A stretch of DNA of 64,000 bases from a phage. Numbering within the stretch: position 1 is the first letter of the stretch; the number at the start of each line of letters is the position of its first letter. A program made the translations under genes and the position numbers. Below, one piece after another: positions 6,890 to 62,897 of the stretch. The stretch is taken from the sequence record PZ445448.1; one strand, given 5' to 3'. The notes beneath the pieces were generated by a model. The model ran no database searches and had not been told where the DNA came from. It worked only from the letters and a program-made list of their open reading frames with translations.

Positions 6890-7480
6890 ACTTGAAAATT
6901 CCTGGCATATCAAGTGTAAGGGGGATTTCTAAAATGGATTTCCTCCTTTTGATATTTCACCGGGCTGGATATTTTAAAATTCTTAGAAAATCAGAAAATG
7001 GATCGAAAACTAAAATGGATTTTTCAGAGTAGGCGCGACAAGCTGAATAACTCATCCTATCGTTTGCACCATATTCCAGGCCACCATTATAGATTTCCCA
7101 CACATGCTAACCTCCCTCTACTAGAACTTCCTCCACTTGCCCTTAACCTTCTATGGTAACAATCTAACCACTATCTTGAAGTTGCGGTGCAGCTTTCCAA
7201 GTACTCGATCTACTTTTCATTTCATGGCTTGGATTTTCTGAAAATTTTTCTCGATAAATTTCTCAGTACTCGATCTGTTTTTCGTTTTCTGAATCGGATT
7301 TTCTGGAAATCGTTCCGGATCTCGACCTGAAATTTTTGGGGACGAAATCGATTTTTCGTTTTCAGAAATGGATTTTTAAAATTTCTATATGGGAATATTT
7401 TATGGGATACTGTTTTATAGGAAATTGTTACGGAGGGTAATTAGCATGCTAATTAAATTTATTAAATGCGAGGAGTTCTC
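6890..7480. repeat. gene-free AT-rich region with GGATTTT(C) repeats and duplicated AGTACTCGATCT
   Basis: at least 6 copies of (A)TGGATTTT and two copies of CAGTACTCGATCT; no ORF with SD. Confidence 0.5.
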
Positions 7481-7524
7481 ATTTAGAATTTTGAATGATA
7501 ATCATTCTCGTTTGCAGAATAACG

Positions 7525-7549
7525 GGCAGGCCCGGTGATTGTCTCCCCC
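7525..7549 (+). repeat. 25-bp core GGCAGGCCCGGTGATTGTCTCCCCC inside a longer hairpin; inverted partner at 17149-17173
   Basis: 24/25 identity to the reverse complement of 17149-17173. Confidence 0.6.
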
Positions 7550-7949
7550 GTCACCGGTGCCTGCCGTCCTTTCGATAGGTATATTGTGCCACCTGGCGGG
7601 GCCGCTGTCAACACTTTTCAAAAAATTTTTCTAACCTGATGCGCTAACCGCTGCAACCTGGCGGGGCCAGCCTGGCAGGACCTAACTGACCAGGTAGGAG
7701 AGAATGAAGGCTTGTAAACCTGGTGGGCCTATGCTATAGGACAGGTAACAATTGAAGAGGAGGTACAAAAATGAAAGGTAATGTGATCCCCTGGAAAATG
7801 TAGCTATTAATGACGCTGAGGCTATCGCCCTGGTTGAAAAGGCCATGGCGGGAGCGTTGGAACATAAAGAAGAGTACGAAAAAATGATGGTTAACCTGGT
7901 AGGGCGGCGGCAGGTGGATTCTATCATAAAAAATAATTTAAAATAATTG

Positions 7950-7977
7950 TTGACAACCGGGGGAGTCCTGCTATTCT
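7950..7977 (+). promoter_or_regulatory. sigma70-like promoter, first of the cassette array
   Basis: TTGACA and TATTCT 16 nt apart, followed by strong SD and ATG at 8030. Confidence 0.45.
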
Positions 7978-8029
7978 TACCCTACAAGGTGAACAACACC
8001 GCACTAACTAGTAAAGAGGATAAAAAATC

Positions 8030-17281: not shown

Positions 17282-17554
17282 ATGTCAAGCTGGATTAATC
17301 AAGAAGTCGAATCACGTTTTAATGCTATTTGGGATCTCATCGAAAAAGAAGACGGCACATCAAGCCCCTACCTCAACAATTTGGAATTCCATTTTGTGGA
17401 AGCGATGAACGCAGAACATGATCACGAAGGTGGTGCGGACGAGTTCGCTAAAGGGTATGGCTTCAACAATGCCAACGAAATGATCGAGGCGGTTGTACTC
17501 CAGGCTGAGGAAGATTATCAATTAAAAACGCTTGAATTCTGCCGCCGTAAGTAA
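17282..17554 (+). CDS. hypothetical acidic protein
   Basis: TTGACA promoter, hairpin, AGAGAGGAAAACACT-ATG. Confidence 0.55.
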   Translation: MSSWINQEVESRFNAIWDLIEKEDGTSSPYLNNLEFHFVEAMNAEHDHEGGADEFAKGYGFNNANEMIEAVVLQAEEDYQLKTLEFCRRK

Positions 17555-17614
17555 TAAGATAATGACACGGGCCGGGAGGCCCACTAATCAGAACCACACA
17601 AAGAGGTAAACATC

Positions 17615-17878
17615 ATGAAACGTCTTGATCAGCTTAAACTAGTTCAGTACATGGCCTACAAAGTTCTTGAAGTCCAAAAAGGTAGCAAAAAAGAGGTTTG
17701 CGAGAAAGCATATAAGATCTTTACCCGTAAAAAAGATGATTGGATGTTACGCCAGACCAAAAAAGCCGATATCCTGGGATACCTGGAAGAAGAGATCCGA
17801 CTTGAAGAACAAGAAGAGATCCGCCGTAGTGAGGCAGATTATCAGGCAGCTTGGGAAAACTGGATGAGCAACAAATAA
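17615..17878 (+). CDS. hypothetical protein
   Basis: hairpin GGGCCGGGAGGCCC then AAAGAGGTAAACATC-ATG. Confidence 0.55.
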   Translation: MKRLDQLKLVQYMAYKVLEVQKGSKKEVCEKAYKIFTRKKDDWMLRQTKKADILGYLEEEIRLEEQEEIRRSEADYQAAWENWMSNK

Positions 17879-18022
17879 TACAACAAGTTACATGGTCAGG
17901 GGCAATAAAGCCCCTTGATCACATAAAAATTATGCTATCCCTGGTTGACAGGGATCGGCAGTTTTGCTATATTCTTTTTTGAAGGGAAGTTGTAAGAAAA
18001 TTAACTAAGAGGTAAAAACACC

Positions 18023-18442
18023 ATGAACATTAAATCTAATAATCCGGCATATAGCTTTGATAACGCTTTTTGTCACGGTCCGGCGGCGAAAGGATTCGAA
18101 ATCGATGGTAAACTAATTATTGTCAATGTTGACGGGGAAGAGGTTGCAGTATATCCGGTGGCAGACGTAAAAAGCCGTTTACAATGCCGCATGGATGTTA
18201 CCGCCTATCAGCTTGATCCGGTCCGCATAGTTGCCCTGGTCCTGGAAGAAGAAATTAAAGCCATGCACCATAGCAACAGATTTATTGGTGACGCGCAGGA
18301 TAATATGAAAGTATGCCGCCATAAAGTTAATGAAGTGCTTAAAGAGTACGGCTATAAAGATCTTATGATCAAACGTGAGGAAAAATTCCGCTACCGTAAC
18401 GACCTGGCAAATCGGATTTTTGAAATATACGAATCATTATAA
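18023..18442 (+). CDS. hypothetical protein
   Basis: TTGACA..TATATT promoter; AAGAGGTAAAAACACC-ATG. Confidence 0.55.
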   Translation: MNIKSNNPAYSFDNAFCHGPAAKGFEIDGKLIIVNVDGEEVAVYPVADVKSRLQCRMDVTAYQLDPVRIVALVLEEEIKAMHHSNRFIGDAQDNMKVCRHKVNEVLKEYGYKDLMIKREEKFRYRNDLANRIFEIYESL

Positions 18443-18461
18443 TTTTTTAACTGAATTATCA

Positions 18462-18486
18462 AGGGGCTTAGGCCCCTTTCTTTTTG
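18462..18486 (+). terminator. intrinsic terminator closing the plus-strand array
   Basis: AGGGGCTTAGGCCCCT followed by TTCTTTTTG. Confidence 0.65.
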
Positions 18487-18489
18487 TCT

Positions 18490-20950
18490 GCTCTTCCTCC
18501 TACCACAAACGGCCCAGCCTGGCAAGTGGAATAATTGACTAGCCATCAATCCCACACACTGTACAAATATACATGGAAAATAACTATTGCATAATTTTTC
18601 ATTGTGTGGTAGCAGGTCCATTTTTACCCGTTTTCTCTCTCAAAATTGCACGTAATGCCGCTATTGCACAAAATTTAACCTGATGCACATCTTCAATATC
18701 TTGTCAACAACTAAAAATCTTTATAAGTCATACACTTACACACTCACAAAAGCGTGTTCTACGTGAAAAATCGAGTATAACTATAGCCGCCAGATCTCAG
18801 AATTTACGTACGCTCACCATTCTATAGTCTGCTAAGTATTTATTCCAACCATGGAATAACGGAATAGTCAATACCTGCATAAAATAATTATTCGTGTAAA
18901 CTGCATAACATAAATCAGCTCAGGTGTCAACATTTTTCGTAAACAGTCCGAAATTGTCACGGTGAGTTATCATAAACAGAGAAATATTTAGTCGTCTAAT
19001 GTTTACTGTACATTACTATACTGACTGGAATCATTAGATGACTAAGAGAAAGATAAGAAATAATTAACAATACAATTATTTTATCTGTAACAATAAGGCA
19101 ACTATGCAAACGAATGGCATGGCGCGACGGAGTCGCGACATAATATAAAAGCAGTAACCATCACCCCCGTGATAGTTTGTCTGCAAACTATTAATCAGAT
19201 CATAGTTGCCTTGTATTTAGTTAATCATGACATAACAAGCAAGGCAACTATAGATCTTCTAATAGTTGCCCTGCTTTTATATTATGTCATAGAAACACCC
19301 GAAGGGGTGACCAAAGGTCACCTGGCATGGCCAGTGAAAGATTATTAACTTGTTAATTGTTAACTTGCTAATTGTTTTCATGCAAACGAATGTCATGGCT
19401 TATCCTATCTGTGTAAACAGTCAAGGTGTAAACTATCCAGGCGTAAACAATCTATACGTGAACAGTGAAACATGAAATAATAACAGTCGTTATTGTGTCG
19501 AAAGTGTATAAGGTGTCATAGTATGTCAGACAAGTTTTTCTCCTCTTTGTCAAGTGCTGCATGAAAAATTTACAAGCTTGTATGGTAGCATTTTTGCTGC
19601 CCTGTTTACATTCAGTTGTGTATGTATAACCCTTGTTGTGTGGGCGTTTAGACGTCTAGACGGTTGGAAGTCCGCAGGTTAATATCTAATCTATTGGCTG
19701 CTAACTATATCCCACACAAATAGTAAGAAATATAATTGTTATGTGCGTAAACAGTAACTCATGTTATCAATCCCTGTATGTATCGCCAGTGGTGCGCATA
19801 ATGGGTATTATGTTAAATTGCCCGTAATGATAACTATTCTCACAATGATAGGTATTCTCATTCACTCCCACAAGATAGGTTGCAAATGTTGTGCCACTGT
19901 GTGAACGGCCTCACCTATTAATTTGCCTCACTGCCTCGATATTTGAGAATTGTTATAAGAATGAGAAGTATTCCCATTTCGTCCGCCTGGCAGCACTCCA
20001 GTCGCTACCGCTCATGACAGGGCAGAACTAGACCCTCTTCAGATATTTCTGGCTGACTCTTCAGGCCTGTGTGGGAAAAGCCAACCTCTCCGGCGGCGGG
20101 GAGGGGTTTGTCAGGAAAATTGCAGGTCAATTAAAAAATTTACGTGGTATATGAAGCGCTCTTCAGGTAAGGCATGTATTATGGGATGAAACCCTCTTCA
20201 GGCAATGATATTTGTGGGTGTGATATTTGCTGGAAAGCCAGATATGACGGGACTCCCGGCGGGGCAGGGGTAGTACAGACAGGGGAAATATGGAGGATGT
20301 AGTTGGGGGAGTTGATCAAACAGGTAGAGTATGGAATATGTTACAAGTATGTTAAATATGGAGGGTGGATATCTGTAGGATTTATGTGTAAAATCAAAGA
20401 CTTAAGTGGTGTTGTGGTATTTTCTATAAATAATTCAAGTTTAATAGGTAATATTTGTCTCTATCCGCTTTGTGTGGTAAACAAATTCAGATGGTGTTGG
20501 TTTACAAGTGTATACATAATATACAAATTAAAGATACAAGAAACCCCCCTCCCCCTTCGGCTACCATTCACCTTTTCCTCTGACTGGTACTTAAACACTT
20601 ATTCAGACTCTTCAGGTTATCACCCATATATCATATGGCAGTGACTGGTGTCCTCCGGCCCCTCTTTCGTCACCCGTCCGCTTCGCCATGCTAATGCCAT
20701 AGCCAATGGTTCGGTTGTTCACCCTGTTCACTCAGGTGTATCTCCATACCCCTTCAAACCGAAGAGAACAGAAAACCCGAATTACTCGGTAAAAGAAAAG
20801 AGAAGAACTTAATTTTATCAGGATAGGCAAGAATGTCAAGGCATGACTGCTCACTAAACAAGCAAACAGTCATGTGTGGGAGGTAAGTGATTGTGGTGGT
20901 AGGAAATTTAGTTGAAAGATGTGTTATAGGTGCTCCCAGCACTTTAGCCG
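18490..20950. repeat. 2.4-kb gene-free repeat-dense region (GTAAACAG iterons, AAGGCAACTAT sites, CTCTTCAGG repeats)
   Basis: no ORF with SD on either strand; multiple short repeat families. Confidence 0.6.
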
Positions 20951-20966
20951 GGTAGCTAATTGTGTG

Positions 20967-21182
20967 TCAGTCCAGTGGTTCATCACCTACTTCACTGAAA
21001 TCAATGTTCATGGTCTCCTCCCAACCATCAATCTCAGCACCAGAGTAGAGATCTTTAGGACTTACTCCCAAAGCATCAGCAACAGAGTCCATATTTAACA
21101 CCTCTGGCAGGTATGATTTATCGAATTCAAGGTAAATCAGGCCACGAGTATTGTCAGCTCCACCAAATATTTCTATCTTCAT
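20967..21182 (-). CDS. hypothetical small acidic protein
   Basis: AGAGGAGATTTC-ATG on minus strand. Confidence 0.45.
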   Translation of the reverse strand: MKIEIFGGADNTRGLIYLEFDKSYLPEVLNMDSVADALGVSPKDLYSGAEIDGWEETMNIDFSEVGDEPLD

Positions 21183-21303
21183 GAAATCTCCTCTGGAAAT
21201 GAGAGTGTGAACAGGGTTTTATACGTTCCGATGCACAGGAATTATGCACGTTTTCCTCTTCAGGCCATGCTTTAGCATGAGGAACCTGTGTGGGCTCGGT
21301 GCT

Positions 21304-21516
21304 TCATAGTCTACCACCCCTGAACTCTTCGTGCTCAGGCATAATAGAGAACCAGATATCTACGATGTCTTCCCACGTTAGGTCATCAGCCTCAGGATCT
21401 ACCTGGAGCAAAGATGGAGAATCTTCAGAATCGAAGTTTTCCTCTTGCACTGGCTCAGTCAAGGGACATATAGTCACTCCTTTGGATGTCTCTTCAGATG
21501 CATGCGTGTTTATCAT
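21304..21516 (-). CDS. hypothetical acidic protein (internal start of a longer ORF)
   Basis: acidic C-terminal half; upstream half has atypical composition. Confidence 0.3.
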   Translation of the reverse strand: MINTHASEETSKGVTICPLTEPVQEENFDSEDSPSLLQVDPEADDLTWEDIVDIWFSIMPEHEEFRGGRL

Positions 21517-21876
21517 GTTCCACCCGTGAGTATTCCGGCAACAGCCGCTATGGACGTAATGATCATCAGAATAACCACCAAAACCTCTGACAATGTTTTC
21601 ATTGTGTATCCCATATTCTCCAAACGATGTGTGGATACTATCACTGGAGCGGCAATGTGTCAACAGAAACGCCGCGAGGGTTTGGTTAAAATCCGAGCGT
21701 ATGGTGATTTGGGTCAAAACGGACGTGCGTTCTCGCTACGCTCGAAATATAGAGTTGTTTGTAGGAAGCTCTTAAACGCTCTGTAACGAGATTATCTGTC
21801 CAAGGTATGCAATCGTGCACCAGATAAAGAAAAGGACGCCACAGAGCGTCCTAGGTGTCTTAAATTTGATATTTTG

Positions 21877-22176
21877 TTATACCCATGAGGGTTTATCAAG
21901 GTTGGAGTAGCTGAAAGGTGTCAAAAGGTGATTGTCAAAATCTCTCAAACTATCCAGATCTTTCTCCTCGTCCTGACACCATCTGTGCCTACATTTATTG
22001 TTGTAGTGCATAGAATGCATAGCGTTCTGCAACTTAACAGGTACAAGTGATTCAGGAGTAGATAGTATTGTTGGGTATGCCAGAACCACCTCAAACAGTG
22101 GAAACACATCGAAACTAAAGTCTACCTCTGCAGAGGTTGATGGCATGTAAGAGTATTTAGCCGCCTTTGTAGACAT
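21877..22176 (-). CDS. hypothetical protein (start at MSTKAAKY)
   Basis: GAGGTGG SD then ATG. Confidence 0.4.
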   Translation of the reverse strand: MSTKAAKYSYMPSTSAEVDFSFDVFPLFEVVLAYPTILSTPESLVPVKLQNAMHSMHYNNKCRHRWCQDEEKDLDSLRDFDNHLLTPFSYSNLDKPSWV

Positions 22177-62084: not shown

Positions 62085-62159
62085 GCCCTGTTAGCTTAGT
62101 GGATAAAGCAGCGGCCTTCTAAGCCGTTGACACTGGTTCGAGTCCAGTACGGGGTGCCA
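62085..62159 (+). tRNA. tRNA-Arg (anticodon TCT)
   Basis: cloverleaf folded by hand: acceptor GCCCTGT/ACGGGGT, anticodon loop CTTCTAA, T-loop TTCGAGT, encoded CCA. Confidence 0.75.
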
Positions 62160-62163
62160 AATT

Positions 62164-62250
62164 GGGGAGTTATCCCGTAGAGGTAGCGGTGTAGACTGTA
62201 AATCTATTGTCATTGCGACTCGGGTGGTTCGACTCCACCACTCCCCACCA
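62164..62250 (+). tRNA. tRNA-Tyr (anticodon GTA), long variable arm
   Basis: acceptor GGGGAGT/ACTCCCC, anticodon loop CTGTAAA, T-loop TTCGACT, CCA. Confidence 0.7.
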
Positions 62251-62364
62251 AATTTATATTTTTAGATGCATAAATAATACAGATAATGGCATTGATATTT
62301 ATCGTCGTTTATACTAGTCACTAACTGCTCGAAAATCAGTGTCATTATCAGTATAATTTATAAA

Positions 62365-62455
62365 GGAGGGTAGGGAGCAATGGTGCTCAAGCGGTCTTGA
62401 AAACCGTCCCGTTGAGGATGACTCGATGATGGTTCGATTCCATTACTCTCCGCCA
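62365..62455 (+). tRNA. tRNA-Ser (anticodon TGA), long variable arm
   Basis: acceptor GGAGGGT/ACTCTCC, anticodon loop CTTGAAA, T-loop TTCGATT, CCA. Confidence 0.65.
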
Positions 62456-62553
62456 CATTGTTGACCTTGTAATTAAGCGAAAGCCGGAAGCAGAACCGGA
62501 TTATCAAATGTTACAGTCGTCATCGCCGACTAGCAACATGGTCAACATACTGA

Positions 62554-62650
62554 GCTAGGTAAGCCCTTTGGCAAGGGCGAGGATTTTTAATCCTGAAAAT
62601 AGACGAGGTAGTCGTTGAATACATAGGTGGTTCGATTCCATCACCTAGCA
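62554..62650 (+). ncRNA. 97-nt tRNA-like element with irregular anticodon region
   Basis: perfect 7-bp acceptor GCTAGGT/ACCTAGC, D-arm, T-loop TTCGATT, but about 10-24 nt too long and no clean anticodon stem. Confidence 0.35.
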
Positions 62651-62657
62651 CCTTTTT

Positions 62658-62733
62658 GCTGATGTAGCACAATCGGTAGTGCAATTGATTTGTAATCAAT
62701 AGGTTGTAGGTTCAAGTCCTGCCATCAGCACCA
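62658..62733 (+). tRNA. tRNA-Thr (anticodon TGT)
   Basis: acceptor GCTGATG/CATCAGC, anticodon stem ATTGA/TCAAT loop TTTGTAA, CCA. Confidence 0.8.
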
Positions 62734-62734
62734 A

Positions 62735-62809
62735 GGCCCTGTAGCTGGAAGGTTCAAGCAAGCGACTCATAATCGCCAGACGGTGGTTCAATTCCACCCA
62801 GGGCCACCA
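62735..62809 (+). tRNA. tRNA-Met or Ile2 (anticodon CAT), elongator type
   Basis: acceptor GGCCCTG/CAGGGCC with G1-C72, anticodon loop CTCATAA, CCA. Confidence 0.7.
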
Positions 62810-62820
62810 AATAGTAAATA

Positions 62821-62897
62821 CTCCGCGTAGCTCAGCTTGGTAGAGCGCCTGATTTGGGATCAGGAGGTCGAGTGTTCGAATCACTCCGTGGAGACCA
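62821..62897 (+). tRNA. tRNA-Pro (anticodon TGG)
   Basis: D-arm GCTCAGCTTGGTAGAGC, anticodon stem CCTGA/TCAGG loop TTTGGGA, T-loop TTCGAAT, CCA. Confidence 0.8.

Follow-up and report, generated by a model that had tools for sequence, protein, structure and literature searches.

The DNA considered here is a stretch of 64,000 nt from sequence record PZ445448.1, which we call the window and whose positions we use as coordinates. It comes from a Vequintavirus, an rV5-like E. coli myophage of a group with genomes of ~137 kb, and contains a gene-free gap of 2524 bp at 18443-20966. The final gene of the plus-strand array, encoding 139 amino acids (aa; PHROG 12277), ends at 18442 on the left of this gap, and on its right lies a minus-strand gene at 20967-21182 encoding 71 aa (PHROG 12108), so that both arrays point into the gap. 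Since the arrays converge, the gap holds their 3' ends and not their promoters. The first-pass annotation of this DNA had noticed a region free of genes and packed with iteron-like repeats, and both of these are real; it had also placed the region between divergent arrays, which is wrong, and with that arrangement goes the transcriptional switch between divergent arrays, at least as it was stated. The curated DrSchubert record likewise shows no gene in these 2.5 kb, and nowhere else in 14.5 kb does it have an intergenic gap of more than ~0.2 kb. The gap sequence finds a match in 121 phage records, with few exceptions Vequintavirus, at 87-96% identity. Our analysis indicates, with high confidence, that it is the genome-terminus region, that is, the concatemer junction, of a chromosome with fixed ends and short direct terminal repeats of the T7 type.

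What carries this reading is the way in which related genomes end. The Gotham record annotates a 459-bp repeat_region at both ends, and in a direct comparison of record starts and ends those of Gotham, HdK5 and EdH4 are each identical over 459 bp, with 0 mismatches; the same exact sequence stands in direct orientation at both ends, which is what defines a direct terminal repeat (DTR). The paper on EdH4 and HdK5 (Korf 2019) gives terminal redundancies of 458 bp (PMC6563267). These three phages are 88-96% identical to our gap, and their 459-bp repeat maps to 19529-19987 of the window at 95-96% identity. Moreover, GenBank records that start or end inside the gap, at least seven of them, always do so at 19529 (query 1087) or at 19987 (query 1545). 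It is because exact repeats at the ends of relatives' records map into the gap, and because further records have their start or their stop at 19529 or 19987, that we read it as a concatemer junction; the packaging site that the first-pass annotation had listed among several candidate roles draws its support from the same mapping. Phages with fixed repeat ends have a terminase that recognises a fixed site in the concatemer, and they restore the repeat by extending the DNA from staggered nicks (PMC5557969). In Shigella phage CM1 (L022; MK962749, 1-3881) the repeat occurs twice in tandem, ~50 nt apart, the first copy ending at the position that corresponds to 19987, and this duplication is an assembly artefact from joining two chromosome ends. 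An alignment of 15 genomes, from which we read the anatomy of the gap (Table 1), gives a mean pairwise difference of 0.060 within the terminal repeat, and it turns from hypervariable to invariant exactly between TGTCA and GACAAG, at position 19529.

Table 1. Features of the gene-free gap, from left to right, in window coordinates
Feature	Position	Strand	Remarks
Intrinsic terminator	18461-18478	+	AAGGGGCTTAGGCCCCTT then T-run; closes the plus-strand array; strong
Module between direct repeats	19104-19399		20-bp repeats ATGCAAACGAATGNCATGGC at 19104-19123 and 19380-19399
Iteron array	19405-19528	+	GTRAAYA units with 15-16-bp period, then 3-5 (T)GTCA copies
Direct terminal repeat, 459 bp	19529-19987		one copy in the window, which suits a concatemer junction or a collapsed assembly
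17-bp repeat AATGAKARSTATTCYCA, three copies	19826-19976 (starts 19826, 19844, 19960)	+	inside the terminal repeat
Conserved terminal element, ~45 bp	19943-19987	+	TTTGnGAAT ... GAATGAGAA ... ATTTCG
Hypervariable, indel-rich flank	19988-20142		directly outside the right boundary of the terminal repeat
Two ~80-bp modules	20033-20110 and 20192-20275 (within 20033-20290)	+	CCCTCTTCAG ... TGTGGG ... AAAGCCA ... CTCC(C)GGCGGGGnAGGGG in each
AT-rich stretch	20300-20540		GC 0.33-0.35; strand bias flips (plus strand G-rich to the left, minus strand G-rich to the right)
G5AG6 run then T-rich tract	20541-20556	-	at the block's distal end; lineage B has G5TAG5
Ultra-conserved noncoding block, ~350 bp	20543-20890	-	nearly invariant in 118 genomes
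Conserved transcribed core (predicted)	20710-20806	-	pyrimidine-rich leader, hairpin 1, hairpin 2, invariant sequence
Sigma-70 promoter	20812-20839	-	TTGACA-16-TAAAAT with TG extension; 11/12 consensus positions; fires leftward toward the terminal repeat
CCCACACA then stable hairpin	20842-20880	-	directly after the final minus-strand gene; 14-bp stem in the minimum-free-energy fold

A second line of comparison comes from a sister lineage, which we call lineage B and which was recovered by pattern searches. It consists of uncultivated phages represented by IMG/VR and metagenome contigs of ~137-140 kb (L013/L025, L026, L027, L030, L033, L034, L035, L038 and L040), with ~75% identity in some genes, and a search of the GenBank phage collection with the conserved block of Table 1 returned no match to this lineage. 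Across the region of that block lineage B is ~50% identical to the window, and the rest of the gap cannot be aligned by BLAST, apart from three islands that it keeps: the right end of the terminal repeat, a patch at 20186-20292 and the right-arm block itself. The first of these islands is the terminal element, which aligns with L013 6695-6743, where the homology stops at the right boundary; its form in lineage B is GATATTTGAGAAT ... ATGAGAAG ... TTTCGyCyGCC. The element is recognisable even in Klebsiella phage KPP-1, of another genus, whose terminal repeat also has AATGAGAA repeats at the place matching the AATGAKARSTATTCYCA copies. We consider the terminal element a candidate terminase recognition or cleavage site.

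The left arm, between the plus-strand array and the repeat, has a GC content of 0.31-0.39 as against ~0.43 genome-wide. The intrinsic terminator with which it begins corresponds to t164 of rV5 (Table S4 of the rV5 paper), whose authors expected bidirectional terminators between these two genes (PMC3606486). To measure the repeat families we compared counts in the gap with the expectation from the remainder of the window: GTAAACA occurs 7 times (0.41 expected), CTCTTCAG 5 times (0.29), ATAGTTGCC 4 times (0.08), CCCACACA 5 times (0.37) and ACATAATATA 3 times (0), an enrichment of 10-100x for the short-repeat families of the gap, in which tandem arrays of 15-bp and 18-bp period also occur. Four ATAGTTGCC sites, alternating in orientation, lie in the 276-bp palindrome-rich module between the 20-bp direct repeats. 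The same module has an 18-nt inverted repeat that is perfect (19137-19154 / 19271-19288), two terminator-like hairpins on the minus strand (19156-19177 and 19296-19309) and a 15-bp tandem repeat at 19341-19376. Phage FV3 lacks 19124-19395 (272 bp), exactly the interval between the 20-bp repeats, and the module must therefore be dispensable; the difference suggests either a loss by recombination between the 20-bp repeats or a small insertion element. Next comes the iteron array, whose final GTCA ends at the left boundary of the terminal repeat. It is the most variable part of the gap, indel-rich and with a pairwise difference of 0.25-0.47 over 19293-19528, and strict GTRAAYA copies number from 1 to 8 across the 15 genomes, with 3 here and 8 in rV5 (~11 units there under a looser reading).

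To the repeat's right, the flank directly outside its right boundary is again hypervariable, with a pairwise difference of ~0.3 (0.27-0.31) over 19993-20142 and indels of up to ~50 bp. Extra CTCTTCAGG copies occur at 20057, 20159 and 20608 in addition to the two ~80-bp modules. The patch at 20186-20292, which contains CAAATATC twice and CCTGAAGAGGG, is 76-79% identical in lineage B, which has retained several CTCTTCAG copies as well. On the plus strand a late-promoter-like GTGGTATAT is found at 20144-20152; the plus-strand TGTGGTA motifs (18603, 20144, 20471), which resemble the late motif of rV5, were dropped as candidates on account of their poor conservation. We likewise dropped a long-range pairing of GGGGAGGGGTTTG (20097) with AAACCCCCCTCCCCC (20541) because its first arm is variable and indel-rich among close relatives. 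The GC skew of this arm flips sharply at ~20500, from values of +0.42 to +0.59 over 20100-20500 to values of -0.25 to -0.39 over 20500-20800; judged by base composition, the AT-rich stretch looks like the meeting point of two short, convergent G-rich transcription units.

The far part of the right arm is occupied by a block that hardly varies. With a 361-bp query (20535-20895) spanning it, 87 of the 118 records reach at least 99% identity and all full-length matches at least 97%. Measured against FV3, the block stands at the 99th percentile among 350-bp windows over 47 kb; its pairwise difference is 0-0.03 as compared with 0.047-0.061 in the flanking stretches, and the matching stretch is the diversity minimum of lineage B as well. 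Searches of the block against E. coli genomes gave no similarity, and an nhmmer profile found no homologue at the KPP-1 and L015 loci, so that the block is limited to Vequintavirus and its sister lineage. Among the records that match the gap are 19 GenBank entries in the range MG065635-MG065682 whose names read 'Campylobacter phage' and of which most give C. jejuni as the host; the identity of those listed is ~88-95% for the gap and 98.6-100% for the conserved block, in the manner of Vequintavirus, and the entries look mislabelled or contaminated.

Read along the minus strand, the block opens with the hairpin that follows the final minus-strand gene, with a fold energy of -19.1 kcal/mol and z = -5.3. 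At the corresponding spot lineage B forms a hairpin whose stem sequence is wholly different (z = -3.5). The hairpin of the window is probably the 3' hairpin or terminator of the minus-strand array. The motif CCACACA(A), which precedes this hairpin (20873-20880), is also often found just upstream of the Shine-Dalgarno sequence in genes of the plus-strand array (17594, 17251, 11990, 59464, 59173 and others), with no clear strand bias seen in the minus-strand array; it is a possible signal for mRNA processing or stability, or possibly a part of a phage promoter. Next comes the sigma-70 promoter, which is an orphan with no gene downstream and which in lineage B reads TTGCAA-17-TGnTATAAT. In the predicted transcribed core, hairpin 1 with its U-run at 20777-20789 reads CCGAgtaatTCGG in the window and CCAGAAtacgcTTCTGG in lineage B, hairpin 2 at 20739-20776 has 13 bp with 4 compensatory pairs between the lineages, and the invariant CTGAGTGAACAGsGTGAACAwCCGAA at 20710-20735 holds two copies of GTGAACA, 10 bp apart, which belong to the same heptamer family as the iterons and stand on the opposite strand. 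On the minus strand the block finishes with GTTTAAGTACCAG and the G5AG6 run, after which come 240 bp of AT-rich DNA. The indels that separate the lineages within the block are of 1, 2 and 5 nt, not multiples of three, and this argues that the block is noncoding.

Could the gap nevertheless encode protein? Open reading frames (ORFs) do occur in it mechanically, the five largest being of 113, 76, 62, 59 and 42 aa, and none of the gap ORFs has a Pfam match above the cut-off or a PHROG match, while both flanking genes do match PHROG. In close relatives stops or frameshifts interrupt all five, the 113-aa ORF in 14/14 of them and the 62-aa ORF in five, as against the flanking 71-aa gene, which is intact in 14/15 genomes. 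A six-frame comparison with distant relatives gave no frame-specific similarity: the weak matches fall on the same DNA patches in several frames and on both strands at once, which means that the similarity is at the level of DNA and not of protein. A tblastn search with the 113-aa ORF against 50,697 phage records found matches only at the same locus in the same genus. On these sequence comparisons the gap is without protein-coding signal, and nothing in it is like a decayed gene; the disrupted ORF in relatives, which the first-pass annotation had named as the finding to look for against its proposal, did not turn up. In the sister-lineage phage L013 a 256-aa HNH homing-endonuclease gene (7216-7986, plus strand; Pfam HNH_3, E = 1.6e-18) sits inside the gene-free region, and nothing comparable was found in the window. 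A scan for tRNA and tmRNA genes found none within the gap.

How would a junction of this kind be processed? Late in replication we expect genomes joined head to tail in concatemers, each junction carrying the repeat once. The terminase, whose large-subunit gene we expect outside the window from the rV5 coordinates, would recognise cis-acting sequences around the junction and make staggered nicks at both boundaries, and extension of the 3' ends would duplicate the repeat, leaving a copy at each end of every packaged chromosome. The iteron and TGTCA array on the one side and the conserved terminal element on the other are our candidates for the recognition or cleavage determinants of the two boundaries. 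The conserved sigma-70 promoter, ~820 bp from the repeat, would fire through the right arm into the junction, and such junction-directed transcription may assist junction processing or priming, by analogy with phiOR of T7, or may make a small noncoding RNA. The remainder of the gap, namely the ATAGTTGCC palindrome module and the hypervariable flanks, would be dispensable or fast-evolving DNA that is tolerated because there are no genes there.

A number of points weigh against this interpretation. The ends of the present phage are read from relatives whose repeat is 95-96% identical to its own, and the repeats of the gap are as protein-binding sites candidates, proposed from their sequence. The repeat accounts for 459 of the 2524 bp only, and the very variable number of iterons together with the missing 272-bp module of FV3 implies that much of the gap is non-essential. 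The promoter may have a role in packaging, by analogy only. Finally, one recent Vequintavirus paper contains a headful call by PhageTerm, yet also reports a DTR (PMC13211470); a headful call conflicts with fixed ends, and we regard it as the weaker evidence.

Among the other explanations, the one that survives best concerns the right arm and is compatible with a genome terminus for the rest of the gap. It holds that the block encodes a new noncoding RNA, driven by the orphan promoter on the minus strand from a start near 20805 and acting in trans, for instance to help take over the host or to counter its defences; the RNA would have ~40 nt if hairpin 1 and its U-run terminate transcription and ~175-285 nt on read-through. 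A promoter close to consensus is kept in a lineage that is only ~50% identical overall, neither lineage has a stretch more conserved than the block, no ORF is kept across indels that break the frame, and the hairpins retain their pairing despite different sequences. RNAalifold places 71 pairs on the block, 14 of them compensatory, with 93.6% of cells paired as against ~50% when the partners are slid, counts that are biased upward, since the independent lineages effectively number only two and the alignment used for the test had also supplied the structure. The fold z-score is -2.95 for the first 147 nt in the window and weak elsewhere (-1.07 for the full length, -0.23 in lineage B). Given two lineages, a structure taken from the same alignment and mixed z-scores, the RNA structure is only suggestive. 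Moreover, a scan of 17500-22000 on both strands against Rfam 15 gave no match with E up to 1, and near-total invariance of the DNA would suit a protein-binding DNA element equally well. Thus of the large noncoding RNA that the first-pass annotation had considered, what stays is a conserved, promoter-driven unit of ~175-285 nt in the right arm, a real lead, and what falls away is any known RNA family. We hold an RNA acting in trans to be possible, on balance improbable.

More generally, the 350-bp block could be an undescribed functional unit of Vequintavirus-like phages, in which an orphan sigma-70 promoter, kept together with its covarying hairpins in two lineages, drives a G-rich noncoding transcript toward and through the junction. 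Such a unit may be the trans-acting phage RNA just described, or it may be a counterpart of phiOR that uses the host polymerase and couples transcription to the cutting of the repeat or to the priming of replication. We put this forward tentatively, as a proposal that the evidence makes plausible without making it the favoured one.

Less probable, and in our view doubtful, is that the gap is or contains a replication origin, either because the iterons bind an initiator beside AT-rich DNA or because the G-rich transcript of the orphan promoter primes through an R-loop next to the AT-rich stretch at 20300-20540, as at the T7 and T4 origins. In favour of an origin we note the iteron array itself, the low GC content (that of the left arm given above, and 0.33 at 20300-20500), a promoter with no gene downstream of it, a predicted G-rich transcript ending in G5AG6 with AT-rich DNA next to it, and the T7 gp4-like primase-helicase attributed to this phage group in the rV5 paper (PMC3606486). 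As in the iteron origins of plasmids and lambda-like phages, direct repeats with a 7-bp core are regularly spaced beside AT-rich DNA; unlike in those origins, the spacing is 15-16 bp and not ~11 or 22 bp, and the number of copies is not conserved, phages that are nearly identical having anything from 1 to 8. No adjacent initiator gene was identified, the flanking genes being small ORFans, and the gap has no perfect DnaA box; its 7 one-mismatch sites against ~3.7 expected from the window-wide rate are not informative and do not amount to an excess. The cumulative GC skew does turn at ~21 kb, but this signal is confounded because the direction of transcription changes there, as the rV5 authors also concluded (PMC3606486). 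No evidence here separates an origin from a packaging site.

The weakest alternative, that the gap is a wasteland of decayed genes or junk with chance repeats merely separating two convergent operons, has on its side the use of that word for rV5 gene-free stretches in an annotation guide (PMC8785237), the hypervariable and indel-rich parts, the 272 bp absent from FV3 and the homing-endonuclease gene in the matching gap of L013, but it is very improbable given that no frame shows protein-level similarity to relatives or other phages, that the terminal repeat and the 350-bp block are conserved as much as the flanking genes or more, that motif families are so strongly enriched and that the same architecture is kept in another genus, and for the terminal repeat and the conserved block it is already contradicted.

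Elsewhere in the window, a tRNA cluster at 62085-62897 contains six ordinary tRNAs (Arg, Tyr, Ser, Thr, Met and Pro) together with a 99-nt tRNA predicted by ARAGORN at 62554-62652 (plus strand), of unassigned identity and with a four-base anticodon (atcc).

If the gap is a genome terminus, the unexplained "non-coding" box or "wasteland" of rV5 becomes interpretable as chromosome ends together with their processing signals. Vequintaviruses are used in phage therapy and are part of the BASEL collection, and their true ends show annotators where to open the genomes, explain artefacts such as duplicated repeats in assemblies, and mark DNA to be kept when these genomes are engineered or rebooted. 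The ultra-conserved promoter block, for its part, is a compact candidate for a transcript linked to packaging or to an origin, or for a new phage RNA.

In essence the feature had already been recorded, as the rV5 non-coding box and as the deposited terminal repeats, and we did not find the two connected in print; nor did we find, in the literature, transcriptomes or functional studies of this region. For rV5, Kropinski et al. 2013 (PMC3606486) drew a 'non-coding' box at genome positions 104013-106618, with no ORFs and no function given, and the Phage Annotation Guide (PMC8785237) cites rV5 for "wastelands with no apparent genes", again with no function proposed. This box, between ORF 163 and ORF 164, is the same locus as ours and matches the gap from end to end at ~92% identity. 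It differs in its larger number of iterons and in a 33-bp insertion in the palindrome module, and the rV5 paper, in which only one terminator was found where two were expected, left the genome ends unplaced. What we add is the iteron array at the boundary, the terminal element shared across genera and the ultra-conserved promoter block with its covarying hairpins, the last of these a modest but testable lead.

Within the Vequintavirinae, short exact direct repeats at both chromosome ends are found in EdH4, HdK5 and Gotham (458-459 bp), in KPP-1 (514 bp, from twofold coverage and PhageTerm; PMC9862379) and in PBES-2 (443 bp, with a read-based signature reported; PMC5557969). The reports of these repeats considered here give their length only and describe no flanking iterons, terminal element or promoter block. 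As in our phage, the KPP-1 repeat lies at a convergent junction, where 1.8 kb contain only two dubious small ORFs, and KPP-1 shares the AATGAGAA ... ATTTCG element with it. The arms differ, sharing short motifs only and no alignable sequence. A search for homologues of the flanking genes by which to orient the KPP-1 locus found none, and its orientation was taken from the AATGAGAA terminal element.

Phages T7 and T3 have terminal repeats of 160 and 231 bp and the promoters phiOL and phiOR, and T7 reportedly has short-repeat arrays beside its terminal repeat as well as a pacB element. In T7 the polymerase pauses at the junction and recruits the terminase (PMC3276506). Our phage differs from these in being a 137-kb myovirus with a host sigma-70 type promoter and no promoter for a phage RNA polymerase, in a repeat that is three times longer, in noncoding arms of ~1 kb each and in having no sequence similarity to them, and for this phage group the link between transcription and packaging rests on analogy. 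The likeness is nevertheless one of overall design. Both have fixed ends with a short repeat produced from staggered nicks (PMC5557969), and both have gene-free DNA on the two sides of the repeat. In both, an array of short repeats lies directly beside one copy of the repeat. Finally, each has a promoter some hundreds of bp upstream that fires through the junction: oriented like the deposited genomes with defined ends, ours lies ~820 bp upstream of the right repeat and is directed through it, in the geometry of phiOR in T7.

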